Positions 5,369 through 64,000 of a DNA stretch of 64,000 nucleotides are shown in pieces; position 1 is the stretch's first letter, and every line of letters begins with the position of its first letter. The stretch spans positions 2,766-66,765 of the forward strand of contig JAVKSQ010000008.1 of the NCBI GenBank assembly GCA_039583615.1, written 5' to 3'. The position numbers were made by a program, and so were the translations under genes. Below the pieces are notes generated by a model, which was not told where the DNA came from, did no database searches, and saw only the letters and a program-made list of their open reading frames with translations. The DNA comes from Acidimicrobiales bacterium. GTDB lineage: Bacteria > Actinomycetota > Acidimicrobiia > Acidimicrobiales > QHCF01.

Positions 5369-5411
5369 TACCCCCTTGTACGGACGGCCTCCACCGGTCA
5401 CACTGGCGAGC

Positions 5412-5693: not shown

Positions 5694-5746
5694 GCCCGCC
5701 AGGGCCTGGTTCGCCGGCCCGCTGAGGGACCGGCAGGCAGTGGTGC

Positions 5747-28728: not shown

Positions 28729-28938
28729 GGGCGGCAACTCCCTTCCACGGTTGCCCGGCGGCGCCGAGCCGCTCTCAGCCGCATCCTAGTAGTTCCTGCG
28801 AGCTGTTCGCAACTCAGGGGGCTGGAGCGGAGCAGTCCCGGCTGGGCGCCGGAGCAGTGCCGCCCTGCCCCCCATTACTGTGTCCGGGTGGACCGGCCAA
28901 GCTCTGCCGCCGCCCGTTCGCCGTCCCCCTCGCTCGGT

Positions 28939-30228
28939 GTGACCGAGGTCCACCGCTTCGTGGAGGAGGAGTGCTTCTCCGGCGGCGGTGACGGCCGGGT
29001 GGGTGCCGAGCTGGAATGGTTGACCTTCCCGGCGGGAGACCGCCGGTCCCGGGTGGACCTGTCCACCCTGGACGCCTTGGCCGCGGAGGTGGCGAGCCTG
29101 CCGGCAGGCGGCAACCTGACCTTCGAGCCAGGCGGCCAGGTGGAGCTGAGCAGCCAGCCCGATACCGACCTCTCCTCTCTCAACCGCGCCGTGGCTGGCG
29201 ACGCCTTGGTGCTGCGCGGCGGGCTCGACCGACTGGGCGTGGAAGCCTCGGCGATCGGCTTGGACCCGATCCGACCGGACACCCGCGTCCTGGACGGCTC
29301 CCGCTACGTGGCCATGCAGGCCTACTTCGATGCCGAGGGCCCGGCCGGCCGTTCCATGATGTGCGGGACTGCCTCGATCCAGGTCAACCTGGACGTGGGC
29401 CAGCCGTCGGCCCGGGCCGGGCGGTGGTCCCTGGCGCATGCGGTCGGTCCGGTCCTGGCTGCCGCCTTCGCCAACTCTCCCTTCGTGGCCGGCTGCCCGT
29501 CAGGTCTGAGGTCCACCCGGCTGGCCCGGTGCCTGACCATGGACCCGACTCGCACCGCCGCGGTGGCCCACGGCCCCCGGTCCGGGTCGACCTGGCACCA
29601 GCCGGCGGCCGCCTGGGCTGACTACGCCCTGAACGCCCGGGTCATGATGGTACGCCGGGACGACGGGCGCCTCCGGCAACCCGACTTCGAGCCGGTGCTG
29701 GAGCCGCTCACCTTCTCCGAGTGGATGACCCGCCCGGATGGCGGGCCGGTGTCAGCGGCCACCGGACGGCCTCTGGGCTTTCCTGGCCTGGACGACCTGG
29801 CCTACCACCTGACCACCCTCTTCCCTCCGGTGCGCCCCAAGGGCTGGCTGGAGCTGCGCATGATCGACGCCCTGCCGGACCCGTGGTGGCGGGTGGCGGT
29901 GGCGGTGCCCGCCGTCCTGCTGAACGACCCCGAGGCAGCCGAGGCGGCAACCATGGCCACCTCGCCCACTGCCGGTCTGTGGGAGGAGGCGGCTCGCTGT
30001 GGCCTGGCCCATCCACTGTTGGCGTCGGCCGCCCAGGCGTGCTTCGGTGCCGCGCTCGCCGGGCTGGACCGGGCAGGTACCGACACCGACACCATGGACG
30101 CCTGCGTCGCCTTCGACGACCGCTTCGTGGCGCGAGGTCGATGCCCGGCCGACGAGCTGGTGCAGGCATGGGCCCGTGAGGGACGTCTCCTGCCGGTGCC
30201 GGCCGGCCGAGAGCCGTCATGGGCCTGA
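28939..30228 (+). CDS. egtA: Glutamate-cysteine ligase EgtA (ergothioneine pathway)
   Basis: ...GRVGAELEWLTF...TFEPGGQVELSS...SMMCGTASIQVNLD... (GCS2/EgtA-like), immediately upstream of egtB-C-D. Start GTG 28939 is a guess; an alternative is GTG around 28884. The first 1.6 kb of ORF 27265..30228 is antisense to tldD and the NiCoT gene. Confidence 0.75.
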   Translation: MTEVHRFVEEECFSGGGDGRVGAELEWLTFPAGDRRSRVDLSTLDALAAEVASLPAGGNLTFEPGGQVELSSQPDTDLSSLNRAVAGDALVLRGGLDRLGVEASAIGLDPIRPDTRVLDGSRYVAMQAYFDAEGPAGRSMMCGTASIQVNLDVGQPSARAGRWSLAHAVGPVLAAAFANSPFVAGCPSGLRSTRLARCLTMDPTRTAAVAHGPRSGSTWHQPAAAWADYALNARVMMVRRDDGRLRQPDFEPVLEPLTFSEWMTRPDGGPVSAATGRPLGFPGLDDLAYHLTTLFPPVRPKGWLELRMIDALPDPWWRVAVAVPAVLLNDPEAAEAATMATSPTAGLWEEAARCGLAHPLLASAAQACFGAALAGLDRAGTDTDTMDACVAFDDRFVARGRCPADELVQAWAREGRLLPVPAGREPSWA

Positions 30229-31691
30229 GCGCCGGGCTGCCCGGGGTCAGCCGGGCCCACCCCGAGTCGCTCGATCTGGCCGAGACGGTGGCGGCCGAGC
30301 TGGAGGCGGCGCGGCGGCGCTCGCTGGAGCTGCTCGATCCCTGCGACGATGCCACCCTGGTCGGCCAGCACTCCCCGCTGATGTCCCCGCTCGTGTGGGA
30401 CCTGGCCCACGTGGGCAACTACGAGGACCTCTGGCTGCTTCGAGCCCTCGGCGCCCAGGGAGTCGATCCATCGCTGGACGACACCTACGACGCCTTTCGC
30501 CATCCCCGTTCGGACCGGCGGGCGCTGGCCCTGATGGGCCCGGCGGCAGCCCGGTCCTACATCGCCAGCGTCCGGGGCCGGGTGCTCGACCAGCTCTCCG
30601 GGACCGATCTGGACCCCGGGCGACCGGCCGGTGACCTGCTGGCCGACGCCTTCGTCTACGGCATGGTCGTCCAGCACGAGCACCAGCACGACGAGACCAT
30701 GCTGGCCGCCCTCCAGCTGTTGGAGGGCTCCCGCCCACTCCTTGGACGCAGTGCCCCCGAAGAGCGCGCCGCAGGGTCCAAAGAACGCCGCCAGCCGCCA
30801 GGCGGCCACCAGGCCAGCCCCCCGGCCCGGCACGGCGAGGTGCGGGTGGACGGGGAGGTGCGGGTGGACGGGGAGGTGCGGGTGGACGGGGAGGTGCGGG
30901 TGGACGGCGAGGTGCGGGTGGACGGCGGGGCCTTCACGATGGGGACCAGCTGGCATCCGTGGGCGTACGACAACGAGCGCCCAGCCCACCAGGTGGAGCT
31001 GCGACCGTACTGGATCGACACCTATCCGGTGACCAACCGGGGCTGGCTGGAGTTCGTGGAGGCGGGGGGCTACCAGCAGGCCCGCTGGTGGAGCGCCGAG
31101 GGCTGGTCGTGGCGGCAGGAGGCGGCCCTTGAGCACCCCCAGCTCTGGCGGAGGGAAGGGGCCTCGTCCTGGTCGCGGCGCTGGTTCGCCCGGCAGGAGG
31201 ACCTGCCCCTCGACCAGCCGGCCGTCCACGTCTGCTGGCACGAGGCGGATGCCTATGCCCGCTGGCGAGGCAAGCGCCTGCCGACGGAGGCCGAGTGGGA
31301 GAAGGCGGCCACCTGGGACCCCGCCTCTGGGGCCAAGCGGCGCTGGCCGTGGGGGGAGGCCGAGCCGACGCCGGACCTGGCCAACCTGGGCCAGCGCCAG
31401 TGGCAGCCGGCACCCGTCGGATCCTGTCCGCAAGGGGCCAGCGCCTATGGCGCCCAGCAGATGGTCGGCGACGTGTGGGAGTGGACCGCCTCGGACTTCG
31501 GGCCCTACCCGGGCTTCGCCTCGTTCCCCTACCGGCAGTACTCGGAGGTCTTCTTCGGCTCGCAGCACAAGGTGCTCAGGGGTGGCTCGTGGGCCACCTG
31601 GCCCGTGGCCGCCCGGCCGACCTTCCGCAACTGGGACTACCCGGTCCGCCGCCAGATCTTCGCCGGCCTGCGCTGTGCCAGGGACGCCTGA
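30219..31691 (+). CDS. egtB: Hercynine oxygenase / sulfoxide synthase EgtB (DinB-like + FGE-sulfatase-like domains)
   Basis: DinB-type His motifs (WDLAHVGNYEDLW, VVQHEHQHDETM) and an FGE-like domain (GGAFTMGT...YWIDTYPVTN...RLPTEAEWEKAA...VWEWTASDF...VLRGGSWAT). It contains an internal 5 x 18-bp repeat. Confidence 0.9.
   Translation: MGLSAGLPGVSRAHPESLDLAETVAAELEAARRRSLELLDPCDDATLVGQHSPLMSPLVWDLAHVGNYEDLWLLRALGAQGVDPSLDDTYDAFRHPRSDRRALALMGPAAARSYIASVRGRVLDQLSGTDLDPGRPAGDLLADAFVYGMVVQHEHQHDETMLAALQLLEGSRPLLGRSAPEERAAGSKERRQPPGGHQASPPARHGEVRVDGEVRVDGEVRVDGEVRVDGEVRVDGGAFTMGTSWHPWAYDNERPAHQVELRPYWIDTYPVTNRGWLEFVEAGGYQQARWWSAEGWSWRQEAALEHPQLWRREGASSWSRRWFARQEDLPLDQPAVHVCWHEADAYARWRGKRLPTEAEWEKAATWDPASGAKRRWPWGEAEPTPDLANLGQRQWQPAPVGSCPQGASAYGAQQMVGDVWEWTASDFGPYPGFASFPYRQYSEVFFGSQHKVLRGGSWATWPVAARPTFRNWDYPVRRQIFAGLRCARDA
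30834..30923 (+). repeat. 18-bp tandem repeat x5 inside egtB (GG[C/G]GAGGTGCGGGTGGAC = GEVRVD)
   Basis: Read directly and in frame with egtB. The outer units use GGC and the three inner units GGG, a synonymous difference. Confidence 0.95.
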
Positions 31692-31695
31692 GGCC

Positions 31696-32484
31696 ATGTG
31701 CCGTCACCTGACGCGGCTCGGCCCGCCGGTCACCCTCCAGTGGCTGCTGCTGGACCCGCCGCACAGCCTTCTCCGCCAGTCGTGGGCCCCCCGCCACCAG
31801 GACGTGGGGCGTATCAACGCCGACGGCTTCGGGGTGGGATGGTACGACCGGGCCCGGCGAGGCGAGCCTGCCCGCTACCGCACCAGCCGGCCGATGTGGG
31901 CCGACCGGTCGTTCGCCAGCCTGGCCGGGCTGGTGGCCTCGGGGGCGGTGATGGCCTCGGTGAGGGCCGCCACTCCCCCGTCGCCGGTGGAGGAGGCCGG
32001 CAACGCTCCCTTCACCGCCGGCCACTGGCTGTTCTCCCACAACGGCACCGTCCACGGCTTCCACGAGCCGTCCACCGGCCTGCGGGTCAAGCTGACGCGC
32101 CTGGTCTCCGAGCGCCGGGCCGGAGGGTTGGAAGGATGCAGCGACTCGGAGGTCCTCTTCGCCCTCGTCCTGGACCGCCTGGACGAGGGAGCCTGCCTGG
32201 GTGACGCGCTGGCCGACGTGACGGCCGTGGTGCTCGGGCTCACCAGCGCCAGGCTCAACCTGATGGTCTCGGACGGCCAGGGCCTGGCCGCCACCGCGTG
32301 GGGCAGCTCGCTGTACACCTTGGAGGGGACCGGCCTGGCCACCGGCGGCGTGCTGGTCAGCTCCGAGCCGTGCGACGACGAGCCCGGCTGGGAGCCGGTA
32401 GCCGACGGGTCGCTGGTGGTGGCCAGCTACCCTCAGGGCTTGCACCTCGAGGTCACGCCGCTGTTCCCCGGCGGTCGCCGGTAG
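31696..32484 (+). CDS. egtC: Amidohydrolase EgtC (class II glutamine amidotransferase fold)
   Basis: The protein starts MCRHL... (Cys2 nucleophile), with ...NADGFGVGWY... and ...FSHNGTV.... Start at ATG 31696 in ORF 31129..32484. Confidence 0.85.
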   Translation: MCRHLTRLGPPVTLQWLLLDPPHSLLRQSWAPRHQDVGRINADGFGVGWYDRARRGEPARYRTSRPMWADRSFASLAGLVASGAVMASVRAATPPSPVEEAGNAPFTAGHWLFSHNGTVHGFHEPSTGLRVKLTRLVSERRAGGLEGCSDSEVLFALVLDRLDEGACLGDALADVTAVVLGLTSARLNLMVSDGQGLAATAWGSSLYTLEGTGLATGGVLVSSEPCDDEPGWEPVADGSLVVASYPQGLHLEVTPLFPGGRR

Positions 32485-32488
32485 CCTG

Positions 32489-33466
32489 GTGCGGGATGCG
32501 CCAGCTCTCAGGGTGGACGTCCACCTCCAGCCCGGCCAGGTCGAGGCCGCCCTGCTGGCCGACGTCGGCTCGGGCCTGAGGGCCGATCCCAAGCGCCTCT
32601 CGCCCCGGTGGCTCTACGACGACCGGGGCTCGGAGCTCTTCGACGCCATCACCCGGCTGCCCGAGTACTACCCGACTCGACGGGAGCGAGAGATACTCGT
32701 GTGCCGAGCCGGCGAGGTGGCCGACCTCACCAGTGCCGACACGCTGGTGGAGCTGGGCTCGGGCACCTCGGAGAAGACCCGACTGCTGCTCGACGCCCTG
32801 GATCGAGCTGGCCGCCTGCGCCGGTTCGTGCCCCTGGACGTGAGCGAGGCGACCCTGCGGGCGGCCAGCTCGGCCGTCGCCGACGCCTACCCGGCCGTGA
32901 CTGTGCACGCGGTGGTGGGGGACTTCACAACCCATCTCGGGCGCCTGCCGGTGGGTGGGCGGCGCCTGGTGGCCTTCCTGGGGGGCACGATCGGCAACCT
33001 GGCGCCGGCCGAGCGTGCCTGCCTCCTGGCCGACCTGGCTGCCAGCCTGGCTTCGGGCGACGCCCTGCTCCTCGGGACCGACCTGGTGAAGGACCCCGCC
33101 CGACTGGTGGCTGCCTACGACGACTCGGCTGGGGTCACCGCCGAGTTCAACCGCAACCTGCTCCACCGGCTCAACCGGGAGATCGGGGCCAACTTCGTGC
33201 CCGAGCGATTCGAGCACCTCGCCCGCTGGGATCCGCAGCGACAGTGGATGGAGATGTGGCTGAGGTCCAACGGCACCCAGTCGGTCGCCCTGCCCAGGCT
33301 GGCGATGGAGATCGAGCTCCGTGACGAGGAGGAGCTTCGTACCGAGATCAGCGCCAAATTTCGCAAGGAAGCTGTCCGAGCCGAGCTGGAGGCGGCTGGA
33401 CTGGACCTGGCCCGGTGGTGGACCGACGCCGCCGGCGACTACGCCTTGTCCCTGTCCTTCGCCTGA
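32489..33466 (+). CDS. egtD: L-histidine N-alpha-methyltransferase EgtD
   Basis: ...LSPRWLYDDRGSELFDAITRLPEYYPTRREREIL...LVELGSGTSEKTRLLL...FLGGTIGN... (EgtD/Methyltransf_33 pattern). GTG start at 32489. Confidence 0.9.
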   Translation: MRDAPALRVDVHLQPGQVEAALLADVGSGLRADPKRLSPRWLYDDRGSELFDAITRLPEYYPTRREREILVCRAGEVADLTSADTLVELGSGTSEKTRLLLDALDRAGRLRRFVPLDVSEATLRAASSAVADAYPAVTVHAVVGDFTTHLGRLPVGGRRLVAFLGGTIGNLAPAERACLLADLAASLASGDALLLGTDLVKDPARLVAAYDDSAGVTAEFNRNLLHRLNREIGANFVPERFEHLARWDPQRQWMEMWLRSNGTQSVALPRLAMEIELRDEEELRTEISAKFRKEAVRAELEAAGLDLARWWTDAAGDYALSLSFA

Positions 33467-46512: not shown

Positions 46513-46546
46513 AAAAAAAGGGGGGGTGCGGTACAGCCCGTACCGC
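46513..46546 (-). terminator. Stem-loop GCGGTAC-n5-GTACCGC followed (minus strand) by C7 T7, between the ctaG-like stop and the typA start
   Basis: Read directly: on the plus strand, A7 (46513-19), a G run, then stem 46528-34 / 46540-46. On the minus strand the hairpin lies 33 nt after stop 46580, and the T7 run ends 13 nt before the typA ATG. The stem-to-U-tract spacing is atypical. Confidence 0.4.
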
Positions 46547-46579
46547 CCGCCTGCAGTCTACCGGCGAGGGCCAGAGCGG

Positions 46580-47488
46580 CTACGAGGCGTCGGTGCGCCG
46601 GGGCCGACGCTCCAGGCGGCGCAGCTCGGCCTCGACGTCGTCCCAGGTGAGCGGGTCAGGATCCAGGCCGGCCTCTTCCGCCTCGTGGGCCTTGACCAGG
46701 ATGGCGCCCGCCGTTCCCCACAGGATGGCGATGCCGAGGATCTTGGCCATCACCCCCGCCAGCTGCTGGTCGGCCACTGGCGACAGGCCGACCGCCGCCG
46801 CCCGGGAGAAGGCCCGGTAGAGGGGATGGTTGGCGAAGATGAATATCAAGGCCGGAAAGTTGGGCAGCAGGGACTGGACGAACAGGTAGGCGATGCGCCC
46901 CACGGTCGTCAGGTGGCGCGGTCCGGGGACCAGCCTCAGGACGGGCAGCCACATGACCACCCCGGCGGTCCCCAGCCAGAGAAGGACTCCGGCGGTGACC
47001 CAGCCCGATGCCGCCTCGGCGTCCACCACCGGTGGGAGCAGTGCTCCCACCGCCGTGGCGGTGAACACCAGGGAGGCGACCACTGGGTGGGCCAACCGGC
47101 GCAGGAGGGCGTCGACCGGCGGTGGCTGGGTGGCCAGGGCCACCAGCCAGCGAGGCAGTCCCAGCAGCAGGAGGGCGGGGACCACCAACAGCACCAGGAT
47201 CTGCTGGCCCAGATGGGCCAGCAGCAGCCAGCGGTGGGCCAGGTCGGCCAGGGGCCAGGTGACGGCGACGGCCAGGGCCACCACGCCGGCGCCGAAGCAG
47301 GCCAGCTCGGCCCGGCTGGCTCGTTGCCAGAGGCGGCGGTGGATCGGCCCCTGCTCCCCGGCTCCCGTCCCGGGCGGGCCCAGTCTCCACAGGACGAGCA
47401 GGTAGCCCCCCGCCACCGCCACCACCACTACCCATCCACCGATGTCGGGCTTCCAGTCCCACGGCGAGCCAACGGCGAGCAGGTCCAC
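46580..47488 (-). CDS. ctaG: Cytochrome c oxidase assembly factor, CtaG (caa3-type) family membrane protein
   Basis: About 7 TM helices, with ...[30 protein letters not shown]... and ...[18 protein letters not shown]..., matching my recollection of the Caa3_CtaG family. Confidence 0.6.
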
Positions 47489-47536
47489 GGCTGGCCCTCA
47501 TCCCTCCGGCGGTCCGGCCGGTCTACGCTCGCCACG

Positions 47537-49588
47537 ATGGAGAGGCTGGACCGTGTGGAGCGGCTCACCAACCTGGTGCTGGTCCTGCTGGACACCCGCC
47601 GGCCGCTCACCCTGGTGGAGATCGCCGGGCAGGTGGCCGGCTACCCGAGCGGCCGTCAGGCTGCCCGCCAGGCGTTCGAACGGGACAAGCGGGTGCTTCG
47701 CGAGGAGGGGATCCCCATCTCGATGGAGAGCCGGCCGGGCGAGGAGGCGGTCGGCTACCGCATCCGAGCCGAGGACTACTACCTGCCCGACCTTCACCTC
47801 AGTCCTGAGGAGCAGTTTGCCCTCAACCTGGCCGTGGCCGGCGTCCACCTTGACGATGCTAGTGGCCGGGCTGCGCTGGTGAAGCTCGGATCGACCGAGC
47901 GCGACCCGGCTCCGGCGATGGCCACCCTGCCGTCACTGCCGCAGCTGGGCGTGCTCCACCGGGCCATGCAGGAGCAGTGCCTGGTCGCCTTCTCCTACCC
48001 TGGTCCGCAGGGGCCCAGGCCGAGGGAGGTCGAGCCGTACGGTCTGTTGTTCCGCCAGGGCTTCTGGTACCTGGTGGGCCGCGACCGGGAGCGGTCGGCC
48101 CTGCGGACCTTCCGGGTGGACCGCATGGAGAGCGCTCCGAGCGTGGGGTCACCGGCCGCCTTCGTTCCCCCTGCCGAGTTCGATCCCTCTACCGCCCTGG
48201 GCAAGCCGTGGCGGCTGGGCGGAGGCGAGGCGGTGGCCGCCACGGTGTCGATCGACCCCTTGCTCGCCCACCAGGTGACGGCCGAGCTGGGGCAGTCGGC
48301 CGTGCGGGACCAGTTGGCCGACGGCTCGGTGGTGGTCGAGCTGCAGGTTACCAACGAGGGGGCCTTCCGGTCGTGGGTGCTCGGCCTGCTCGACCACGCG
48401 GTGGTGCTCGAACCCCCCGAGCTGCGCAAGTCGATGATCACCTGGCTGGAGGCAGTGGCTTCCGGGCCTTCACCGGCTTCCGGGCCTTCGCCGGCTTCCG
48501 GGCCTTCACCGGCTTCCGGGCCTTCACCGGCTTCCGGGCCTTCGCCGGCTGGGGACGGCCGTCGGGCGAGCATCCCCGCCAGGCAGACGCAGACCCGCCC
48601 GGGCGGCGGCGAGGAGGCCCGGGCGGGGGCGAGCGGGCCGGCCGGGACCGGCCGGCGTCCGGACGCCGCCGAGCGCCTGCGCTGCCTGCTGGCCGTCCTG
48701 CCCTGGCTGGCCAGCCGGGGCGGGGCACCGATCGCCGAGGTGGCCGAGCGCTTCGGTCTTCCCGAGAGGGAGGTGGTGGCCCTGCTGGAGCTGGCCGCCT
48801 GCTGCGGCCTTCCCCCCTACTCCCCCGACCAGCTGATCGAGCTGATCGTCTCCGACGACTGGGTGACCGCCAATCTCGGACCCCACCTGTCGAGGCCCCA
48901 GCGCCTCAGCGCCACCGAGGGCTTCACCCTGGCCGCCTCCGCCCGGGCCATCCTGGCCGTGCCGGGATCGGATCCGAACGGAGCCCTCTCCCGCGCCCTG
49001 ACCAAGCTGGAGGCAGTGCTGGGCGAGCACCTGGCGGTGGCGGTCGACCTGGACGAGCCCCCGCTGCTGGCCACCGTGCGCCAGGCCATGGCGGCTGGCG
49101 AGGCCCTCGAGCTGGAGTACTACTCGGCATCGCGTGACGAGTTGACCACCCGTCGGGTCGATCCCTGGGCGACGTTCACCGAGGGGGGTCACTGGTACCT
49201 CGACGGCTGGTGCCACCTGGCTGGGGGCATGCGCCACTTCCGCGTGGACAGGGCCCGGGCCGCCCGGCTGGCCGGTCCCCCATCGGCGACCATCCCGCCA
49301 GGGGAAGGGCCGGGCGAGCCGCCTCGGCTGTTCGCCCCGGGGCCGGGGGCAACCCTCGCCCGCCTGGCCATCCCCGCTTCGGCCCGCTGGGTGGTCGAGA
49401 CCTACCCGACCGAGGACGTGAGGGAGGGCGCCGACGGCCGCTTGGAGGTGACCCTGGCGGTGGGGGGGACGGCCTGGCTGGAGCGCCTGTTGCTCCGCCT
49501 GGGGCCGGCGGCCGAGGTCCTGGAGCCGGGTGACCTTGCCGACCTCGCCCGCCGGGCGGCGGGCCGGCTCCTGGCCCGCTACCGGTGA
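47537..49588 (+). CDS. pafBC: Fused PafB-PafC-like regulator (two HTH-WYL-WCX modules in one polypeptide)
   Basis: Module 1: MERLDRVERLTNLVLVLL... (wHTH) ... EPYGLLFRQGFWYLVGRD (WYL). A linker with 5x SGPSPA follows. Module 2: AERLRCLLAVLPWLASRGG... (wHTH) ... DPWATFTEGGHWYLDGWC (WYL). Start at ATG 47537; the upstream part of ORF 46526..49588 is antisense to ctaG. Confidence 0.75.
   Translation: MERLDRVERLTNLVLVLLDTRRPLTLVEIAGQVAGYPSGRQAARQAFERDKRVLREEGIPISMESRPGEEAVGYRIRAEDYYLPDLHLSPEEQFALNLAVAGVHLDDASGRAALVKLGSTERDPAPAMATLPSLPQLGVLHRAMQEQCLVAFSYPGPQGPRPREVEPYGLLFRQGFWYLVGRDRERSALRTFRVDRMESAPSVGSPAAFVPPAEFDPSTALGKPWRLGGGEAVAATVSIDPLLAHQVTAELGQSAVRDQLADGSVVVELQVTNEGAFRSWVLGLLDHAVVLEPPELRKSMITWLEAVASGPSPASGPSPASGPSPASGPSPASGPSPAGDGRRASIPARQTQTRPGGGEEARAGASGPAGTGRRPDAAERLRCLLAVLPWLASRGGAPIAEVAERFGLPEREVVALLELAACCGLPPYSPDQLIELIVSDDWVTANLGPHLSRPQRLSATEGFTLAASARAILAVPGSDPNGALSRALTKLEAVLGEHLAVAVDLDEPPLLATVRQAMAAGEALELEYYSASRDELTTRRVDPWATFTEGGHWYLDGWCHLAGGMRHFRVDRARAARLAGPPSATIPPGEGPGEPPRLFAPGPGATLARLAIPASARWVVETYPTEDVREGADGRLEVTLAVGGTAWLERLLLRLGPAAEVLEPGDLADLARRAAGRLLARYR
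48461..48550 (+). repeat. 18-bp tandem repeat x5 in the PafBC inter-module linker (TCCGGGCCTTC[A/G]CCGGCT = SGPSPA)
   Basis: Read directly and in frame. The units differ only at a synonymous Ser codon (TCA/TCG). Confidence 0.95.
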
Positions 49589-49643
49589 GCCGGCCGGGCC
49601 CGGCCCGACGGGGCTGGCCCAGCCGCTCCGGGGGGCGGACCAG

Positions 49644-49672
49644 GCGACAAGACGGGTGAAGCGACCTACACT
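49644..49672 (+). promoter_or_regulatory. Candidate housekeeping-type promoter: GCGACA-N17-TACACT
   Basis: Read directly. The -10 element fits TANNNT. It is followed by RBS AAGGAGG (49682-88) and ATG 49695. Confidence 0.4.
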
Positions 49673-49694
49673 GGGTGCACCAAGGAGGTTCGAG

Positions 49695-51224
49695 ATGCCT
49701 CAGAACCGACATGGAGGCGACCGGAGCAACGCCAGCCCGGTCAGTGACGAGGCGCTGGTCGAGCAGACCAGAGCCGGCTGCCTCGATACCTTCGAGAAGC
49801 TGTACCAGCGGCATGCGCCGGTCGCCTGGCGTACCGCTCTGGCCATCACCGGCAACGTCCACGATGCCGCCGACGCGGTGGCCGAGGCCTTTGCGCGGGT
49901 GCTGCGAGCGGTCCCGGCCGGTCAGCTGGACGATGCCGCCCGCTTTCGCCCTTACCTGCTGACCGCCACCCGCAACTCGGCCCTCGACATCCTGCGGCGG
50001 GGCGCACGCGTCAGGCCCACTGACGACATGGTCACCCTGGACCGGCCGATGACCACCAACGGGCCCTCGGAGCACCTCGAGGCCAGTGCCGACGCGTCGA
50101 TGGTGGCCGCCGCTTTCGCCGCCCTGCCCGAGCGTTGGCGTACCGTGCTGTGGCTGACCGAGGTCGAGGGGGTGGCGCCCGGCGATGCCGCCAGCGTCCT
50201 TCACACCTCGCCCAACGCCGTCGCCCAACTGGGCGTCCGGGCGCGGGCCGGGCTGCGCCAGCAATTCCTGCAGGCCCACCTGCGCTCCGATGCGGCTCAG
50301 GGCTGCCGGTCCACGGTCAAGGTCCTGGGGCCCTACGCGACCGGGAGCCTGTCGGCCAAGGCGATGGCCAGGGTGGACGGCCATCTGGCCGACTGCCCGG
50401 CCTGCGTGGCCCGGTTGGACGAGCTCAACGAGCTGTGCTCCAGCCTGCGTCGGGTGGCGGTGCCGGGCGTCCCCGCCACCCTCGGGGCCTGGGTGGCGGC
50501 CCGTTCCAGGGCGGCCGGGCACTTGGCCGTCGGCGCCTCTCGCCACGGTGCCCTGGCGACGCTGCCGGCCATCACGGCCAAGCCGCTGGTCGGGGCGGCG
50601 CTGGGGATCATCGGGGTGGGCATCATCGGGGCATCGGTGATGGGCCAGTCCTTTGCCCCCCTGCCCCAACCGGCCCATCCGTCGGTCGACCTGGGTGGCG
50701 CGCCACCCAGCCATGTGCGCCACATAGGGCGGCTGGGCTCGCCCACCGCCCTTCCTCCCAGCGCCTCCACCGGGGCAGCCGACTCACCGACCGGCCCGGC
50801 GCCGGCGCCAGCCACCACGCTGGCATCGGTTGCGCCCGGCCCAGGGACGACGCCGGGCTCGGCCGGCTCGGTGGCCATCGGGACGCCGGCCGCCGTGGTC
50901 CGCTCGGCCTCTCCTGGGGCCGCAGCAACCGGGCAGGCCGGCACCTCGCCGGGCCCGCCGGCGTCGGTGGCCACTGATCCGAGTCAGCCTCCCGCCGCAC
51001 CGGCCGCATCGTCCACCCCGACGCCACTGGTGCAGGTGTCGGCCAACCTGGCGGTGTCCGCCCTCCCGGTCAGTGCCTCGGTGGGCCTGGGCCCGGGTTC
51101 GTGCACCGGCGCGCAGGTGGGCTCCATCCAGGTCGGATGCAGCCAACCGGCGTCCGCCCAGCCCTCGGTCAAGCTGAGTGGCTCGCTGGTCAGCCTGCCG
51201 TCAACCCTCGGCCTGGTGCACTAG
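49695..51224 (+). CDS. ECF sigma factor fused to a zf-HC2 anti-sigma-like domain, a TM helix and a Pro/Ala/Ser-rich extracytoplasmic tail
   Basis: Sigma region 2 (FEKLYQRHAPVAWRTALAITGNVHDAADAVAEAF) and region 4 (LPERWRTVLWLTEVEGVAPGDAASVLHTSPNAVAQLGVRAR). Then C-x24-HLADCPAC (HxxxCxxC), the TM helix LVGAALGIIGVGIIGASVM, and about 170 aa of low-complexity PAST-rich tail. Confidence 0.8.
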   Translation: MPQNRHGGDRSNASPVSDEALVEQTRAGCLDTFEKLYQRHAPVAWRTALAITGNVHDAADAVAEAFARVLRAVPAGQLDDAARFRPYLLTATRNSALDILRRGARVRPTDDMVTLDRPMTTNGPSEHLEASADASMVAAAFAALPERWRTVLWLTEVEGVAPGDAASVLHTSPNAVAQLGVRARAGLRQQFLQAHLRSDAAQGCRSTVKVLGPYATGSLSAKAMARVDGHLADCPACVARLDELNELCSSLRRVAVPGVPATLGAWVAARSRAAGHLAVGASRHGALATLPAITAKPLVGAALGIIGVGIIGASVMGQSFAPLPQPAHPSVDLGGAPPSHVRHIGRLGSPTALPPSASTGAADSPTGPAPAPATTLASVAPGPGTTPGSAGSVAIGTPAAVVRSASPGAAATGQAGTSPGPPASVATDPSQPPAAPAASSTPTPLVQVSANLAVSALPVSASVGLGPGSCTGAQVGSIQVGCSQPASAQPSVKLSGSLVSLPSTLGLVH

Positions 51225-58237: not shown

Positions 58238-58465
58238 TCAACTAACCGTGGTTCCAGCGTCAGCCTGGCGAGCGCACGAGGCGCAGCAAAACATTCGGCC
58301 CGCCGCTTCGGCGCCGTGGCCCAGCACCCGGCATCCGCAGTGCTCACAGATCGGTGCTAGGCGGTGAGCGGCGCATTCGAAGCTGTCGAAGACGTGACGC
58401 TCGCCGGCCATTATGACCTCGAAGGTCTTGTCGTAGTCGTTGCCGCACACCTCGCATCTGGACAT
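58238..58465 (-). CDS. Small Cys-rich (9 Cys, 4 His in 75 aa) putative metal-binding protein
   Basis: ATG 58465 with RBS AAGGAAGG gives MSRCEVCGNDYDKTFEVIMAGERHVFDSFECAAHRLAPICEHCGCRVLGHGAEAAGRMFCCASCARQ.... CxxC, CxHCGC and CCxxC clusters. Confidence 0.7.
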   Translation of the reverse strand: MSRCEVCGNDYDKTFEVIMAGERHVFDSFECAAHRLAPICEHCGCRVLGHGAEAAGRMFCCASCARQADAGTTVS

Positions 58466-58779
58466 ATCCCGACCTTCCTTTCCGGACGGTTGATCGTCCC
58501 CTGTTTGCCGCCGCGGAGACTGCTGGTGGCCTCGCCGCGGACCACGCCCAGGGCTGCTCGGACCAGCCCCTCTTGGCGGTCCTCCTGCGCCTCGGTCACG
58601 CCTGGTATGTACCCCGAACGCTGCGCCGGGCACCGCAGTCTGGCTCGGCCCGCTCCGCCGGGACCCCCAGCACCAACACGGCGGACGGTTGGGCCGGCTC
58701 GGCTGGCAACACCCTCTCCGGGACCAGCGGAGGCGTCGACTCGCTGCTCAACAGCGGAGGCCCGCCCTCGGCGGCTCGC

Positions 58780-59409
58780 TCAGGCGTCGGTGAGCGGCCC
58801 CGGGTAGGCCGCTTCGGCCTGGGCGCTCAGTCTACCCGCCCGGTGGCGGACGACGACGATGGCGCCGACAATGACGGCCACCGCGCTGATCCCGAGACCG
58901 ACGTCGACCGGTCCCGAGACCTTGTTGATGGCGTTGCCGGCGGCGTAGGACGAGAAGCTGTAGATGGCCGCCCACACGATGCCGCCGGTGGCGTTGTAGG
59001 GCAGGAAGCGCCGCCAGTGCATGCGGTTGGTACCGGCCAGGAAAGCGGCATAGGTCCTCAGGACGGACACGAACCGGCCGAGGAAGACAACCTTCGCTCC
59101 GTGACGGTCGAAGATGTAGCGACCGACCTTGATCCTGGTCTCGTCAACTCGCACGTAGTGCCCGTAGCGGCGCAGGAGCCGGTAACCGCCCTTGTCCCCG
59201 ATCCAGAAACCGATGTTGTCCCCGATGATGGCGGCGGCGGCGGCGACGGCAAAGACCAGCCAGATGGACAGCTTGTGGGTACTGCCGGCATAGGTGCCGG
59301 CGGCGATCAGGATGGTCTCCCCGGGCAAGGGGATGCCGAGGCTCTCGGCCGCCACCAAGGCGAACACCGCGGCGTAGCCGTACGTGGTTAGCAGGTGGGT
59401 GACGTTCAT
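58780..59409 (-). CDS. dedA: DedA family membrane protein
   Basis: ATG 59409 gives ...AVFALVAAESLGIPLPGETILIAAG...GDNIGFWIGDKGGY...FLGRFVSVLRTYAAFLAG... (SNARE-associated/DedA signature). Confidence 0.85.
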   Translation of the reverse strand: MNVTHLLTTYGYAAVFALVAAESLGIPLPGETILIAAGTYAGSTHKLSIWLVFAVAAAAAIIGDNIGFWIGDKGGYRLLRRYGHYVRVDETRIKVGRYIFDRHGAKVVFLGRFVSVLRTYAAFLAGTNRMHWRRFLPYNATGGIVWAAIYSFSSYAAGNAINKVSGPVDVGLGISAVAVIVGAIVVVRHRAGRLSAQAEAAYPGPLTDA

Positions 59410-59526
59410 AGGGGCGTCCCTGGCTGGCACCCGACGCCGGGCGGAAGCGCCGGAAGACCTGGGCGAACTCGCAGCCGATCGCCCCGCCACGATCGCCGCA
59501 CCGGGCGGGCAGCGAGCCTCTCCAGC

Positions 59527-60213
59527 CTACATCGCCTCCTTCACGCCTCGGCGAATCAGCCAGACATTGGTGGGATAGGCGGTGGCGAAGCCGATCATCA
59601 TGCCGATCTGCATGAGGAACCAGTAGACCGGCGAATCCGGGCGGAGGTGAGGGTTGGGGAACAAGACGAAGACCACCAGGGCCATCCACCCGAACAGCCC
59701 TATCTCGAAGCTGGTGAGCGACAAGATATCGGCCTTGGCCGCCTCCCACATTCCGTCCTTCAGATTGAGGCCTCGCATGGGTGCGATGGCGAAGTACTGG
59801 AACACGATGCCGATCGACACCGCGGCAAGGTAGTCCCCGATGTACTCCGGGACCAGCGCCAAGCCTGCCACGGTGGCGCCGATGCCGAACACGGCGAACT
59901 CCGCTATGACGTCTCCCAGCGTGCAGCCCGCCCCGCAGTGGCTGACACCAACGGCCACCACCGTCCAGAACGGGCGCCTCGGCTGCTCGCCGTGCTCCGC
60001 CTCCCAGCGGCTGGCCTTGGCTCGGCCCCACGCCCCGTAGGCGACAGTGGCGACCGGGCCGAAGTACAAGGCGGTGATCGGCCACACCGCTTCCATGACC
60101 CGCATGGGCTGGCGGTAGCCGTGAACGTAGATGTCATAGACGATCTCCGCCGCGCTGGCGAAGGCGAGGGCGAGGGCGGCCCAGGACAGATCAGTCAGCC
60201 AGGTCGGCGGCAT
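59527..60213 (-). CDS. DUF4396-like integral membrane protein with a CGAGC motif
   Basis: ATG 60213 with RBS GGAAAGGA. About 6 TM helices, VGVSHCGAGCTLGD, and a C-terminal ...GFATAYPTNVWLIRRGVKEAM, as I recall for DUF4396. Confidence 0.65.
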   Translation of the reverse strand: MPPTWLTDLSWAALALAFASAAEIVYDIYVHGYRQPMRVMEAVWPITALYFGPVATVAYGAWGRAKASRWEAEHGEQPRRPFWTVVAVGVSHCGAGCTLGDVIAEFAVFGIGATVAGLALVPEYIGDYLAAVSIGIVFQYFAIAPMRGLNLKDGMWEAAKADILSLTSFEIGLFGWMALVVFVLFPNPHLRPDSPVYWFLMQIGMMIGFATAYPTNVWLIRRGVKEAM

Positions 60214-60311
60214 GTCCGTGATCCTTTCCTCGTCGTCGGCCTCGCCGTCGAGGTCGGCCTCCAGGCCCCGGCGCAGCCTACGATGCTCCCCGTTGCTCAG
60301 CGCAGAGCGGG

Positions 60312-60365
60312 AACCCTGTCGATGGCGTGCACATTCCGCGGAATCAACCGGGTCGCAAGGGGGTT
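60312..60365. promoter_or_regulatory. Back-to-back SigR/SigH-type ECF promoters: AAC-N18-ATTCCGCGGAAT-N18-GTT
   Basis: Read directly. Plus strand: GGAAT 60340-44, 18 nt, GTT 60363-65, then 8 nt to GTG 60374. Minus strand: GGAAT (complement of 60333-37), 18 nt, GTT (complement of 60312-14). The central 12 bp (60333-44) are a perfect palindrome. Confidence 0.6.
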
Positions 60366-60373
60366 TCACACAC

Positions 60374-60934
60374 GTGCCCGACCCGGCTGAGCAGCAGCTC
60401 CGAGAGGACGCGTTCGCCCGCTACGTGCTGCCGGAGCTGGAGGTGCTTGCCGGGGTGGCGTTCTCGCTGACCGGCAACGGCGCTGACGCCGAAGACCTCG
60501 TCCAAGAGACGCTTATCTGCGCCTACCGGGCGATCGAGCGCTTCGACGGCGCCCACCCCCGGGCGTGGCTGTTCACCATCATGCGCAACGCCGAGGCAAA
60601 GCGGCACCGCCGCCGCCGCCCGCAGCTGCTGCGCGACCCCGACCAGGCCCAGCGCCTCGAGAGGGCCGACCCCCGCCGCGCCGTCGACTCGCCCGAGGAG
60701 GTGGTGGTCGGCGCCGAGTTCGACGCCGTGGTGACCCAGTGCCTCGGCGCCCTCCCCGAACGGCACCGCCAGGTGATCGGGCTCGTCGACATCGACGGGC
60801 TCTCCTACGCCGAGGCGGCGGAGATCCTCGGGGTGCCGGTCGGCACCGTCATGAGCCGCCTGCACCGCGCCCGGACCCGCATCCGCCAGCGGCTCAGCGC
60901 GGCAGGCGTCGCCCCGAGACGGAGCATGCGATGA
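60374..60934 (+). CDS. ECF sigma factor (SigR/SigH-like by promoter and partner)
   Basis: Region 2 DAEDLVQETLICAYRAIERFDGAHPRAWLFTIMRNA and region 4 LPERHRQVIGLVDIDGLSYAEAAEILGVPVGTVMSRLHRAR. GTG 60374 lies in the frame of ORF 60212..60934. Confidence 0.85.
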   Translation: MPDPAEQQLREDAFARYVLPELEVLAGVAFSLTGNGADAEDLVQETLICAYRAIERFDGAHPRAWLFTIMRNAEAKRHRRRRPQLLRDPDQAQRLERADPRRAVDSPEEVVVGAEFDAVVTQCLGALPERHRQVIGLVDIDGLSYAEAAEILGVPVGTVMSRLHRARTRIRQRLSAAGVAPRRSMR

Positions 60935-61218
60935 ACCCGTTGAGCCTGGCGGCCAGCCGCCTCCACTGCTTGCACAACATGCGCCTCCTGCAGACCTACC
61001 TGGACGGTGCCCTCGACGAGATGCCGGCCCGACGTGTCGCCGAGCATCTCGAGGAGTGCCGTCGCTGCGGTCTCGAGGCGGAGATCTACCGGGAGATCAA
61101 GGCGTCGATTCACGAGCGGGACTGCACCGTCGACCCTGGCGCCGTCGAACGGCTCCGCCGATTCGGTGAGGCCCTCGCTCGCGACGGCGAGCCGGCCCCG
61201 GGCGGAGCGGGTGCGTGA
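60931..61218 (+). CDS. Cytoplasmic zinc-binding anti-sigma factor (ZAS, RsrA/RshA-like)
   Basis: ATG 60931 overlaps the sigma stop (ATGA). 95 aa with no TM helix. C13...H39-x3-C43-x2-C46 (AEHLEECRRC) has the same spacing as RsrA C11/H37/C41/C44. Confidence 0.8.
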   Translation: MNPLSLAASRLHCLHNMRLLQTYLDGALDEMPARRVAEHLEECRRCGLEAEIYREIKASIHERDCTVDPGAVERLRRFGEALARDGEPAPGGAGA

Positions 61219-61249
61219 GGCGAGCAGTCACCCAGGCAAGGGCGCGGCG

Positions 61250-62719
61250 GTGGTGACGCAGTCGCCGGCAACCGCCGAGGGCGGCCGAGGGGCGCTCGGC
61301 GCCGGCCGCGGGGCGGAACCCGCCTGGGACCTGGCGGTCGTCGGCGGCGGAGCGGGAGGAATCGCAGCCGCTCGTGCCGGCGTGCGCCGGGGCCGTCGCA
61401 CCGTACTGGTCCAGGACGGCCGCGTCGGCGGCGAGTGCACCTTCACCGGATGCGTGCCGTCCAAGACGCTGATCGAGGCGGCGGGCCAGGGCTTGTCCTT
61501 CGCCCAGGCGGCCAGCAGGATGCAGGCGGTAATCGAGACGATCGCCGCAACCGAGAGCTCCGACGCCCTGTCGAAGGAAGGCATCGAGGTCGTGACCGGC
61601 CGAGCCCGCTTCGTCGGTCCGACCGCCCTGGAGGTCGACGGGCGCATCCTGGCAGCCAGACGGGTCGTCATCGCCACCGGCTCCAGCCCCATGGTCCCGC
61701 CGGTTCCGGGACTTCCCGACGCCGAGTTCCTCACCAACGAGTCGGTCTTCGGTCTCACCGAGCTGCCCCAGTCGATCGCCGTGCTGGGTGGCGGGGCGAT
61801 CGGCTGCGAGCTCGCCCAGGTCTTCCGGCGCTTCGGCGCCCAGGTGCACATCATCGAGGGCGAGCAGCGGCTGCTCGTGAAGGAGGAGGCCGAGACGGGC
61901 GCGTTAGTGGCGAAGGTCTTGTCCGCAGAGGGCATCGACCTGCACCTGGGTGCATTGGCCAGCCGGGTCGAGCCCTCGCCGCCGGGGGAAGCGGTCAGGA
62001 TCGCGCTGTCCGATGGCTCCGAGGTGCGGGCGGCCGCCCTGCTGGTGGCGGTCGGACGGACACCGACGACGACTGGTCTGGATCCCGAGGCGGGAGGGGT
62101 CGAGCTCGACGACCGGGGGTTCGTGCGCACGGACCGGTTCCTGCACACCAGCGCCCCGGGCGTCTACGCGGTGGGTGACGTGACCGGCCGGCTGCTGTTC
62201 ACCCACGCCGCCGACGAGATGGGCCAGCTGGCGGTGCGAAATGCCTTCCGGCACCTCGGGCGCCGTCGGTTCGACCCGTCAGCGGTCCCGTGGGTGACCT
62301 TCTGCGACCCCGAGGTTGCTCGTGTCGGCCTCACCGAGCACCAGGGGGCGGCCCACCACGGGAGGGTCGCGGTGCTGCCGATGTCGGCGGTCGACCGGGC
62401 GGTGACCGCCGGGCGGACCGAGGGGTTCGTGAAGCTGATCGCCGGGCCCCGCCCGCTGCTCCGCTCCGCCGGCGGCGGCCAGCTGCTCGGGGCGACCATC
62501 GTCGCTCCCCGGGCAGGCGAGATGATCCACGAGGTCGTACTGGCCATGCGCACGGGCATGTTCACCGGCCGGCTCGCCCAGGCGGTGCACGCCTACCCCA
62601 CCTGGTCGACCGCCGTGCGCCAGGCGGCCGCGCAGTTCTTCGTGGAGGTCGACGGTCGTCGGGCCCGCCCGGCCCGGCCGGCCGCCTCGGCCGCCACGGG
62701 CGAGCCTGGCCCGTGCTGA
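61250..62719 (+). CDS. FAD-dependent pyridine nucleotide-disulfide oxidoreductase (class I; lipoamide dehydrogenase / MerA-core-like; substrate unknown)
   Basis: FAD fold DLAVVGGGAGGIAAA, redox-active disulfide GGECTFTGCVPSK, NAD fold IAVLGGGAIGCELA, and the dimerisation-domain motif VHAYPTWS. There is no N-terminal HMA domain and no C-terminal Cys pair; the protein ends ...GEPGPC. Start GTG 61250 or 61253. Confidence 0.85.
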   Translation: MVTQSPATAEGGRGALGAGRGAEPAWDLAVVGGGAGGIAAARAGVRRGRRTVLVQDGRVGGECTFTGCVPSKTLIEAAGQGLSFAQAASRMQAVIETIAATESSDALSKEGIEVVTGRARFVGPTALEVDGRILAARRVVIATGSSPMVPPVPGLPDAEFLTNESVFGLTELPQSIAVLGGGAIGCELAQVFRRFGAQVHIIEGEQRLLVKEEAETGALVAKVLSAEGIDLHLGALASRVEPSPPGEAVRIALSDGSEVRAAALLVAVGRTPTTTGLDPEAGGVELDDRGFVRTDRFLHTSAPGVYAVGDVTGRLLFTHAADEMGQLAVRNAFRHLGRRRFDPSAVPWVTFCDPEVARVGLTEHQGAAHHGRVAVLPMSAVDRAVTAGRTEGFVKLIAGPRPLLRSAGGGQLLGATIVAPRAGEMIHEVVLAMRTGMFTGRLAQAVHAYPTWSTAVRQAAAQFFVEVDGRRARPARPAASAATGEPGPC

Positions 62720-64000
62720 GGGGAGACGGGCGGACCCCGAGGAAGGCCATCCGGGAAGAGGAACATGCGTTGGCCAGGCCGCTCACCCAGACCGAGGTCG
62801 GTGCCCGTCTCGACCGGCTCAGGTGGACCCGCTTGCACACCACCATCCTCGTCGCCCTGGGCGCCGGCTGGCTGTTCGACTCGTTCGAGGTGCAGATGTT
62901 CTCCAACGCGGTCGGGCCGCTCGGCAACCACTTCGGCGCCACCGTCTTCGAGCGCGACGCCATCCTGGCGGTATGGCTGGGGGGCATCTTGTTCGGCGCC
63001 CTGGTCGGCGGGGGCCTGTCCGACCGGTTCGGCCGGCGGCGCCTGTTCGTGGCTACCTTGCTGTGGTACGCGGGGTTCACGGTGCTGACCGGGCTGAGCC
63101 CGGACCTCGGCGCGGTCTATGCCCTGCGGTTCCTGGCCGCCCTCGGGGTGGGGGCCGAATACGCCATCGTCAACGCGGCGATCGCCGAGCTGATCCCCGC
63201 CCGGGTACGGGGCAGGGCCAACGCGCTGATAATGAACTTCTGGCCGGCCGGCGCCATCCTCGCTGCCCTGCTCGCCTACGTCGTCCTCGACACGTTGGCC
63301 GTCGGTGACGCCGCCTCGTGGCGGTATCTGTTCGTATTCGGCGGACTGGTGGCGCTGGTGGTGCTGGTCTTCCGCCGCCGGATCCCCGAGTCGCCCCGCT
63401 GGCTGGCCGCCCGGGGACGCCATGGTGAGGCCGAGCAGATCCTGGCCGCCCTCGAGGCGTGTCCCGGTCACCCCCCGACGTCTCGCCTTTCAGCCATCGA
63501 GGCCAGCACTCCCAGGCTGCGCCAAGGGCTGAGCGAGCTGGTTCGCCGCTACCCGGGACGCCTCGCCCTGGGGGCGTTGCTGGACCTGGCCGAAGCCTTC
63601 GGCTACTACGGCATCTTCGCCCTGCTCTCCGTGGTGGTGCTGCACCAGGTCCACATCTCGGATCGGGCCATCCCGTTCTTCTACATCGTCGGCAACGCCG
63701 GCGGCCTACTGGGCGGCCTGGTGATGACGAGCGTCTTCGACCGGGTCGGGCACCGCCTGACCGTCGGCGTCACCTATCTGGCCGCAGCCGGCGGAATCGG
63801 CCTCTTGGTCCTGGCCACTGCATCGGGAAGCGCGCTGTGGGTGACGCTGGCCTTCGTCGCTGCCAGCGGGGCGGGCACTGCAGCCTGGACCTCCGCCTAC
63901 CCGACGTTCACCGAGATCTTCCCCACGCACCTGCGCGGAGTCGGCGTGGGGACCTCGGTGGCGGTAGGCCGGGTGGGGGCCGTAGTGGGCACCCTCGCCC
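62713..64000 (+). CDS. MFS transporter (partial; continues past the window end)
   Basis: The frame is open from GTG 62713 (GTGCTGA overlap with the reductase stop; alternative TTG 62770) to the window end. My translation includes ...RLDRLRWTRLHTTILVALGAGWLFDSFEV..., LSDRFGRRRLF, PESPRWL and 10 or more TM helices. It is absent from the track because there is no stop in the window. Confidence 0.8.
   Translation, partial: MLRGDGRTPRKAIREEEHALARPLTQTEVGARLDRLRWTRLHTTILVALGAGWLFDSFEVQMFSNAVGPLGNHFGATVFERDAILAVWLGGILFGALVGGGLSDRFGRRRLFVATLLWYAGFTVLTGLSPDLGAVYALRFLAALGVGAEYAIVNAAIAELIPARVRGRANALIMNFWPAGAILAALLAYVVLDTLAVGDAASWRYLFVFGGLVALVVLVFRRRIPESPRWLAARGRHGEAEQILAALEACPGHPPTSRLSAIEASTPRLRQGLSELVRRYPGRLALGALLDLAEAFGYYGIFALLSVVVLHQVHISDRAIPFFYIVGNAGGLLGGLVMTSVFDRVGHRLTVGVTYLAAAGGIGLLVLATASGSALWVTLAFVAASGAGTAAWTSAYPTFTEIFPTHLRGVGVGTSVAVGRVGAVVGTLA

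Follow-up and report, generated by a model that had tools for sequence, protein, structure and literature searches.

A SigR/SigH-like sigma factor and zinc anti-sigma pair linked to an uncharacterised flavoprotein disulfide reductase in an Acidimicrobiales genome and in other Actinomycetota

The SigR-RsrA pair of Streptomyces coelicolor and the SigH-RshA pairs of Mycobacterium and Corynebacterium, thiol-oxidative-stress switches of the ECF12 type, share one layout, in which the gene of an extracytoplasmic function (ECF) sigma factor is followed by that of a small cytoplasmic zinc anti-sigma factor (ZAS). Here we describe a switch with the same layout in a 64,000-nt stretch of an Acidimicrobiales genome (GenBank assembly GCA_039583615.1, contig JAVKSQ010000008.1; hereafter the window), whose base composition is high in G+C and actinobacterial. 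The sigma gene (60374-60934, + strand) encodes a 186-aa SigH/SigR-like protein, its stop codon is overlapped by the start of the gene of the 95-aa anti-sigma factor ZAS1 (60931-61218, +), and the gene of a 489-aa class I flavoprotein (pyridine-nucleotide) disulfide reductase, as recognised by Pfam (61250-62719, +), comes third. We refer to this enzyme as the CTFTGC reductase after its redox centre, GGECTFTGCVPSK. The sigma belongs to a distinct subgroup, found in Acidimicrobiia-like and other Actinomycetota, that is a previously uncharacterised, widely conserved relative of the SigR/SigH switch. The reading that we favour, and hold to be reasonably probable, is that of a conserved SigH/SigR-type ECF subgroup with a core sigma-ZAS1-reductase operon, in which a second zinc anti-sigma gene (ZAS2) and the downstream genes were rearranged in the window.

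Relatives of the reductase were sought in GTDB species genomes with the patterns G[DE]CTFTGC and [FL]THAADEM and were confirmed with tblastn. This gave 409 stretches with a confirmed relative, and the best 80 (52-71% identity), which were retained as numbered loci, come from Acidimicrobiia, unclassified Actinomycetes metagenome-assembled genomes, Thermoleophilia, Micromonospora and Kribbella. Orthologs of both sigma and ZAS1 adjoin the reductase gene in 31 of the 80 loci, in an operon (11 loci), divergently (10) or within a few kilobases (10). Where the reductase gene lies outside the sigma operon, the same SigR/SigH-type promoter as that of the sigma operon is found at a fixed, leaderless distance of -40/-41 in 14 of 68 loci, against an expectation of 0.019 per 270 nt. 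As a negative control, we inspected some 70 other ECF sigma factors from metagenomes (34-46% identity), and none had a CTFTGC reductase nearby. Given the recurrent linkage, the shared promoter and the negative control, sigma, ZAS1 and the reductase therefore form a real conserved unit. The original prediction, that a SigR/RsrA-like switch is tied physically and by its regulation to a class I disulfide reductase that had not been characterised, is thus borne out, and the reductase is the predicted core target of the sigma. A metagenome scan anchored on the sigma itself was dominated by other ECF groups and yielded only about six true orthologs, mostly on short contigs.

The sigma consists of region 2 and region 4 only (Sigma70_r2, 65.6 bits; Sigma70_r4_2, 64.3 bits; domain calls are those of Pfam and curated cut-offs those of NCBIfam). 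Its orthologs are 52-86% identical among 20 aligned sequences, and up to 89% over short fragments. SigH of Mycobacterium tuberculosis is the closest relative in the PDB (E = 6e-27). ZAS1, a zf-HC2 protein, has the same Cys/His/Cys/Cys pattern as RsrA, and the ligand spacing C13/H39/C43/C46 that had been noted earlier is read directly from the translation, offset by +2 from C11/H37/C41/C44 of RsrA. No ortholog fragment that covers the site lacks the N-terminal Cys, the equivalent of RsrA C11, and HxxxCxxC is kept in essentially all of the 38 fragments. Unlike SigR-RsrA and SigH-RshA, the pair in the window falls far under the curated cut-offs (107 bits for the sigma against 251.55 for SigH_actino, TIGR02947), and we do not file sigma and ZAS1 as members of the curated SigH and RsrA families. 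The redox determinants that flank the cysteines of RsrA are E39, E40, L45 and E46 (Jung 2011, PMC3177212). They are only partly kept in ZAS1, whose window copy reads H-L-E-E-C-R-R-C-G-L-E; in the orthologs the second Glu is replaced by D, M, L, V, A or T, and the Leu-Glu pair is shifted by one residue relative to the RsrA determinants. By analogy with RsrA and RshA, oxidation, alkylation or soft-metal attack at the zinc site of ZAS1 would release the sigma, and we treat the switch as SigR-RsrA-like in action. The main text of the ECF reclassification paper contains no description that matches the window sigma.

The sigma operon is preceded by a putative autoregulatory promoter, GGAATcaaccgggtcgcaaggggGTT (60340-60365, +), with a -35 GGAAT, an 18-nt spacer and a -10 GTT, a motif equal to the published SigR/SigH consensus (PMC3489674). 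A mirror promoter, GGAATgtgcacgccatcgacaggGTT (60312-60337, -), was found by the same GGAAT-N18/19-GTT pattern search. The window holds three such sites where 0.46 would be expected, and two of them form a back-to-back pair, as had been noticed before: both lie within a 160-bp divergent region, with their -35 elements 2 bp apart (ATTCC-GC-GGAAT). Since the GTG start codon of the sigma gene is only 8 nt downstream of the -10 GTT, the mRNA of the sigma operon is probably leaderless. In more than 15 loci, sigma orthologs are preceded by this motif with the same 8-nt spacing to the start codon, and the ATTCC-NN-GGAAT geometry is kept in L003, L005, L006, L007, L064 and L084/85. The consensus promoter would drive the sigma-ZAS1-reductase operon, so that free sigma would amplify its own operon together with the reductase, while the mirror promoter 2 bp away would fire in the opposite direction, in the relatives into ZAS2. 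The consensus, the predicted autoregulation and the thiol-redox genes of the predicted regulon are shared with SigR and SigH; the apparently leaderless operon, the flavoprotein disulfide reductase as a fixed third gene and the mirror promoter that leads into a second ZAS protein in relatives set the locus apart from SigR-RsrA and SigH-RshA. Rfam, terminator scans and folding of leader and intergenic sequences gave nothing above background for RNA elements or terminators. The third GGAAT-N19-GTT match (10717-10742, -) lies 118 nt upstream of the gene of a 542-aa Kelch-repeat protein (8971-10599); we rejected it as a regulon member, and it is consistent with chance.

In the relatives, the gene behind the mirror promoter encodes ZAS2, a second small zf-HC2 protein of 81-82 aa. 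In 15-20 loci its gene and the sigma gene are divergent, and a conserved N-terminal His replaces the Cys of ZAS1. His-His-Cys-Cys is the pattern of zinc anti-sigma factors of the ChrR type (Rhodobacter sphaeroides), which are not known to respond to thiol oxidants. The likeness to ChrR belongs to ZAS2 of the relatives, with its N-terminal His and HxxxCxxC; unlike ChrR, ZAS2 has only about 80 aa and lacks a C-terminal sensor domain such as a cupin. On the simplest reading, the sigma would induce ZAS2 as a brake with a lower sensitivity to oxidation. There is a parallel in C. glutamicum, where rshA, likewise an anti-sigma gene controlled by the sigma that it inhibits, has its own SigH-dependent promoter, for which a fast shut-down of the response was proposed (PMC3489674). 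In the present system, unlike in C. glutamicum, the feedback gene of the relatives is a separate divergent paralog with another set of zinc ligands, and it has been lost in the window.

What is left of ZAS2 in the window is a remnant of 22 codons, LSNGEHRRLRRGLEADLDGEAD (60300-60235, -), which is 68% identical to the N-terminus of ZAS2 in L084 (E = 2.6e-5), lies at the syntenic position and on the syntenic strand and is now the 5′ leader of a DUF4396 gene. A ZAS2 profile hidden Markov model (HMM) matches the stop-to-stop open reading frame (ORF) that contains it (60420-59530, -; E = 1.9e-4). The HxxxCxxC part of ZAS2 was found nowhere in the window by tblastn or by the ZAS2 HMM; weak tblastn matches at 57.9-58.1 kb were considered as a 3′ remnant and rejected, their E-value with the ZAS2 HMM being 23. 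The remnant reads in frame into the gene of the DUF4396 membrane protein (59527-60213, -; 228 aa; PF14342, 138.5 bits against 27). DUF4396 homologs align only from the internal ATG at 60213, which has its own ribosome-binding site (RBS), GGAAAGGA, and most of the 120 homologs listed have 228-233 aa. The remnant and the homologs that start at this ATG therefore indicate that ZAS2 was truncated and that DUF4396 now stands behind the sigma-dependent promoter. ZAS2 would have been cut after 22 codons, with DUF4396 and then a DedA gene taking its place. This capture of DUF4396 by a sigma-dependent promoter appears to be confined to the lineage of the window.

The CTFTGC reductase has the fold, the domain order and the redox-active CxxxxC disulfide in the FAD domain that are common to the class I enzymes MerA, dihydrolipoamide dehydrogenase (Lpd), mycothione reductase (Mtr) and RclA, and, as in these, the active-site His lies in a dimerisation domain. 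Unlike these enzymes, it has an invariant CTFTGC centre (18 aligned homologs), as the original prediction had singled out, and lacks the Glu partner of the His: the C-terminal motif HAYPTWS[T/L/V/M/A] keeps the His in 18 of 18 sequences and the partner Glu of the dyad in none. It also falls below every curated cut-off, with 354 bits for MerA (TIGR02053, cut-off 454.45), 309.6 bits for Lpd (cut-off 408.8), whose His-Glu dyad HxxxxE it does not have, and 201 and 223.9 bits for Mtr (TIGR03452, cut-off 635.65, and NF005884, cut-off 501). The nearest solved structures are those of MerA (4ywo, about 33% identity, and 5x1y). Its position outside the characterised families, checked against Lpd and Mtr, agrees with what had been supposed, and the enzyme is equidistant from MerA and Lpd. 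Unlike MerA, it has neither the metal-binding HMA domain (Pfam) nor the C-terminal Cys pair (18 family members), and both absences had been foreseen. An invariant Glu closes the second Rossmann (NAD(P)-binding) strand, which suggests an NADH-type enzyme, as in NADH-using Lpd. The single terminal Cys to which attention had been drawn is present in the window copy but is not conserved among the homologs; it is therefore incidental, and we rejected it as a functional residue.

A second atypical flavoprotein reductase is encoded directly 3′ of the CTFTGC reductase in several loci (L014, 3200-4504; L017, 11442-12815; L050, L054, L061, L066 and L072). This enzyme combines a CPYWGC centre with a C-terminal YAYPTFH motif, is 37-39% identical and also remains below all curated cut-offs.

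Downstream of the reductase, the relatives differ from the window. The reductase had been described as an orphan, which does not hold in the relatives: the gene of an atypical radical SAM protein comes after it in 24 loci, and the full series consists of this radical SAM protein, an MTAP-like phosphorylase, members of TIGR04282 and TIGR04283, a major facilitator superfamily (MFS) transporter and an Rv1681-like radical SAM protein fused to a phosphoesterase. Where contigs are long enough, the full cluster is seen, in L007, L013, L030, L051, L084/85 and L176, the last from a Ferrimicrobium sp. The matches to TIGR04282 and TIGR04283 are above cut-off, and NCBIfam names these families 'arsenosugar biosynthesis' transferases; the radical SAM proteins of the cluster are not ArsS (46.6 bits against a cut-off of 300). 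SigR-type promoters precede the radical SAM gene in L020 and L034 and the MFS gene in L013. In the window, the MFS gene (62770-64000, +; MFS_1/Sugar_tr; its 3′ end lies beyond the window) comes directly after the reductase gene, and its product is 85% identical to the MFS protein of the cluster in L084. The radical SAM, MTAP-like, TIGR04282 and TIGR04283 genes are absent from the whole window. As the MFS matches that of the cluster and the four intervening genes are gone, the adjacency of reductase and MFS is a deletion product; the loss of four genes would have brought a conserved MFS directly behind the reductase. The MFS start had been thought to overlap the reductase stop codon. A GTG that does so exists, at 62713, but the gene probably starts at TTG 62770, which has an RBS, GGAAGAGG, and aligns with the N-termini of the homologs.

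The conserved system would accordingly comprise three parts: the sigma-ZAS1-reductase operon, ZAS2 with its mirror promoter (lost in the window) and the radical-SAM/transferase/MFS cluster (mostly lost in the window). Other genes may belong to the regulon. In L084, SigR-type promoters also stand before a mycoredoxin-like gene and that of a second flavoprotein reductase, which supports a putative thiol-redox regulon. A conserved membrane protein that is about 270 aa long and belongs to no Pfam family has a SigR-type promoter in at least five loci (L006, about 9086-9904, -; L001; L002; L007; L020, 15969, +) and may be a further regulon member. As a separate observation, in L081, among relatives from the Acidimicrobiaceae, the region upstream of ZAS2-sigma (3702-8438) holds four genes, which encode a radical SAM protein with a Zn_ribbon_HMPTM domain, a UbiE-type methyltransferase, a CDP-alcohol phosphatidyltransferase-like protein and an amine-oxidase-like flavoprotein.

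Pfam and NCBIfam analyses placed all seven genes of the original prediction where it had them, and the NCBI gene models of the source contig agree in length for three (489, 228 and 75 aa). DUF4396, the DedA gene and a small gene for a protein with nine cysteines are without homologs across all 80 loci anchored on the reductase. The HCGAGC motif reported for DUF4396 is present and conserved: among 38 homologs H92, C93, G94, G96 and C97 are invariant, and A95 is kept in at least 90%. A soft-metal role would be plausible. The AlphaFold model of the protein is of moderate quality (pLDDT 74, and below 50 in the region of the Cys motif), and a Foldseek search of it against the PDB returned no match with E < 0.1 or TM > 0.35. 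Homologs with 67-79% identity occur in Nocardioidaceae, Amycolatopsis, Streptomyces, Mycobacterium and Acidobacteriota, in unrelated contexts. The closest (79%) belongs to a three-gene unit (L086, 2426-3871; L087, 6001-7446), together with a MerR-family regulator (best match MerR, 132.8 bits against a cut-off of 150.85) and a protein of 84 aa that carries CPS and GACC motifs and has a weak DF-family selenoprotein-like match; the unit adjoins an rve integrase and a BrnT-type toxin(-antitoxin) pair.

The gene of the 209-aa DedA/VTT-domain membrane protein (58780-59409, -; VTT_dom, 70.2 bits against 33.9) lies 117 nt downstream of DUF4396 on the same strand, and its product does not reach the NCBIfam DedA/UptA equivalogs. 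It is not co-conserved with sigma or reductase in the 80 loci, nor with DUF4396 in three sampled contexts. DUF4396 and DedA thus appear to be lineage-specific arrivals. Their lower G+C content was considered as a sign of horizontal transfer and set aside, the difference lying in codon positions 1 and 2 and the third position being equal.

The 75-aa ORF with nine Cys (58238-58465, -) begins 314 nt downstream of DedA. Its family is large, with more than 3,400 homolog clusters (65-82% identity) in Actinomycetota and Acidobacteriota, and the homologs are stand-alone genes in variable contexts, one of them near an ArsR/aquaporin/ArsC operon. All nine cysteines that had been counted are invariant in 35 homologs, as are H42 and H50, and the protein is probably metal-binding. 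It has no Pfam match at E <= 0.01 and no NCBIfam match, and the family profile found nothing in the PDB better than E = 0.21. Neither a Pfam model nor a solved structure identifies it as a metallothionein of the SmtA/BmtA type; the pattern CEHCGC...FCCxxCA is reminiscent of SmtA. Source annotations label homologs variously as 'Rieske Fe-S protein' or 'Prokaryotic metallothionein'. We read this gene as an unrelated bystander outside the module.

These contexts bear on the broadest claim of the original prediction, in which all seven genes form one compact, co-evolved thiol-oxidation or soft-metal response module. In its favour, the genes lie next to one another, sigma-type promoters start both directions of transcription, the conserved motifs of DUF4396 are rich in Cys, Met and His, the nine-Cys protein has an invariant Cys/His pattern, and the closest DUF4396 homolog adjoins a MerR-type metal regulator. 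Conservation of the neighbourhood, which had been proposed as a check, divides the genes: sigma, ZAS1 and reductase are linked in 31 of 80 loci, whereas DUF4396, DedA and the nine-Cys gene are found in 0 of 80, their homologs in unrelated and variable contexts. Moreover, DUF4396 sits where the ancestral ZAS2 was truncated, and the nine-Cys gene, 314 nt past DedA, comes from a family of stand-alone genes. Because co-conservation is lacking, the seven-gene module is largely refuted, and we regard it as very unlikely. A role in mercury or soft-metal resistance, with the reductase as a divergent MerA and DUF4396 as a metal importer, is more improbable still. MerA enzymes are the best solved relatives of the reductase and MerA its second-best NCBIfam match, the closest DUF4396 homolog stands near a MerR-like regulator, a small CC-containing protein and an integrase, and DUF4396 has been reported to flank a metal-resistance island (PMC7760498). 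What speaks against a mercuric reductase is that the enzyme has neither the C-terminal Cys pair nor the NmerA domain, keeps a His where 5x1y has Tyr, stays 100 bits short of the MerA cut-off (354 against 454) and, to judge from the alignments, carries an NADH-type Glu where MerA uses NADPH; its family is also conserved without DUF4396 in every relative.

Two further explanations are less remote, although we consider both unlikely. The sigma might be the only SigH/SigR ortholog of its lineage and control a broad regulon, while the CTFTGC reductase would be the functional equivalent of mycothione reductase and recycle the main low-molecular-weight thiol. This would fit SigH as the closest solved sigma, the consensus SigH/SigR promoter, the promoters shared by the mycoredoxin-like gene and other flavoprotein reductases in L084 and the control of the mycothione reductase gene mtr by SigH in C. 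glutamicum (PMC3489674). It fits poorly with the scores against SigH_actino (107 against 251.55) and the Mtr models (201-224 against 501-636), with the strand-end Glu, which would suggest NADH and not NADPH, and with the occurrence of the reductase family in Micromonospora and Kribbella without the sigma and without the promoter. We take these two genera to have canonical SigR and Mtr. Alternatively, the reductase could work with the radical-SAM/MTAP-like/TIGR04282/TIGR04283/MFS pathway, and the switch would then respond not to general disulfide stress but to a metalloid or another thiol-reactive substrate of the pathway. The radical SAM gene following the reductase in 24 loci, the full cluster in at least seven loci, the TIGR04282 and TIGR04283 proteins of the 'arsenosugar biosynthesis' type above cut-off, the SigR-type promoters before the radical SAM and MFS genes and the thiol reactivity of As(III) all point in this direction. 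On the other hand, the radical SAM protein is not ArsS, arsM and ars genes were not found in these loci, and the window has no biosynthetic genes, yet its sigma, ZAS1 and reductase are intact. A bolder version, which we hold to be rather more doubtful, is that reductase, downstream cluster and MFS form one sigma-controlled pathway that makes, transports and re-reduces a small molecule containing S, Se or As, perhaps a novel low-molecular-weight thiol of Acidimicrobiia-like Actinomycetota. ZAS1 and ZAS2 would be redox sensor and brake, and the genome of the window, which lacks the biosynthetic genes but retains reductase and transporter, would be that of a scavenger able to take up the compound and reduce it.

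We retain the reading of a conserved SigH/SigR-type subgroup with a core sigma-ZAS1-reductase operon, rearranged in the window around ZAS2 and the downstream genes. Several observations weigh against it. No sigma gene is present in 48 of 79 reductase loci, many of them on short contigs, and one sigma ortholog, in L096, has no reductase within 7 kb. ZAS1 reaches 31.5 bits with antisig_RsrA (TIGR03988), whose cut-off is 62.5, and ZAS2 is below it too; among the RsrA determinants, the first Glu alone is consistently kept in ZAS1 orthologs, and it is from the ligand pattern alone that we infer redox sensing by ZAS1. The second boundary of the replacement of ZAS2 was searched for with the ZAS2 HMM and not found. 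The G+C content at third codon positions (GC3) of DUF4396 and DedA, 0.89, equals that of their neighbours and gives no compositional mark of recent transfer.

The subgroup provides a family of uncharacterised flavoprotein disulfide reductases, whose signature occurs in at least 409 GTDB species genomes, with a conserved regulon that can be tested, and it would extend thiol sensing of the SigR/SigH type to deep-branching, mostly uncultured Actinomycetota. Its layout is unusual, with promoters of the same sigma back to back and paired zinc anti-sigma factors with different ligand sets. The replacement of the second anti-sigma gene by DUF4396 would be a clean case of promoter capture, and a caution that the adjacency of genes in a single genome does not amount to a functional module. 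A Ferrimicrobium sp. has the complete version and is a possible experimental model.

Elsewhere in the window, the ergothioneine genes that had been mentioned as lying some distance away were located at about 28.9-33.5 kb. They form a complete operon, egtA-egtB-egtC-egtD (28900-33466, +); EgtB, EgtC and EgtD are above the curated cut-offs, and EgtA is right at its own (370.2 against 370.8). The pattern search of the window for GGAAT-N18/19-GTT gave no SigR-type promoter before egtA-D. Another ECF sigma, fused to a zinc anti-sigma-like domain, is encoded by a 564-aa ORF (49530-51224, +) with Sigma70_r2, Sigma70_r4_2, a zf-HC2 motif (HLADCPAC), a hydrophobic stretch and a tail rich in Pro, Ser and Ala; presumably it resembles the actinobacterial ECF52 type. 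A long ORF (46526-49588, +), whose sequence suggests a WYL/HTH-type regulator, contains five tandem GPSPAS hexapeptides at about 48430-48520.

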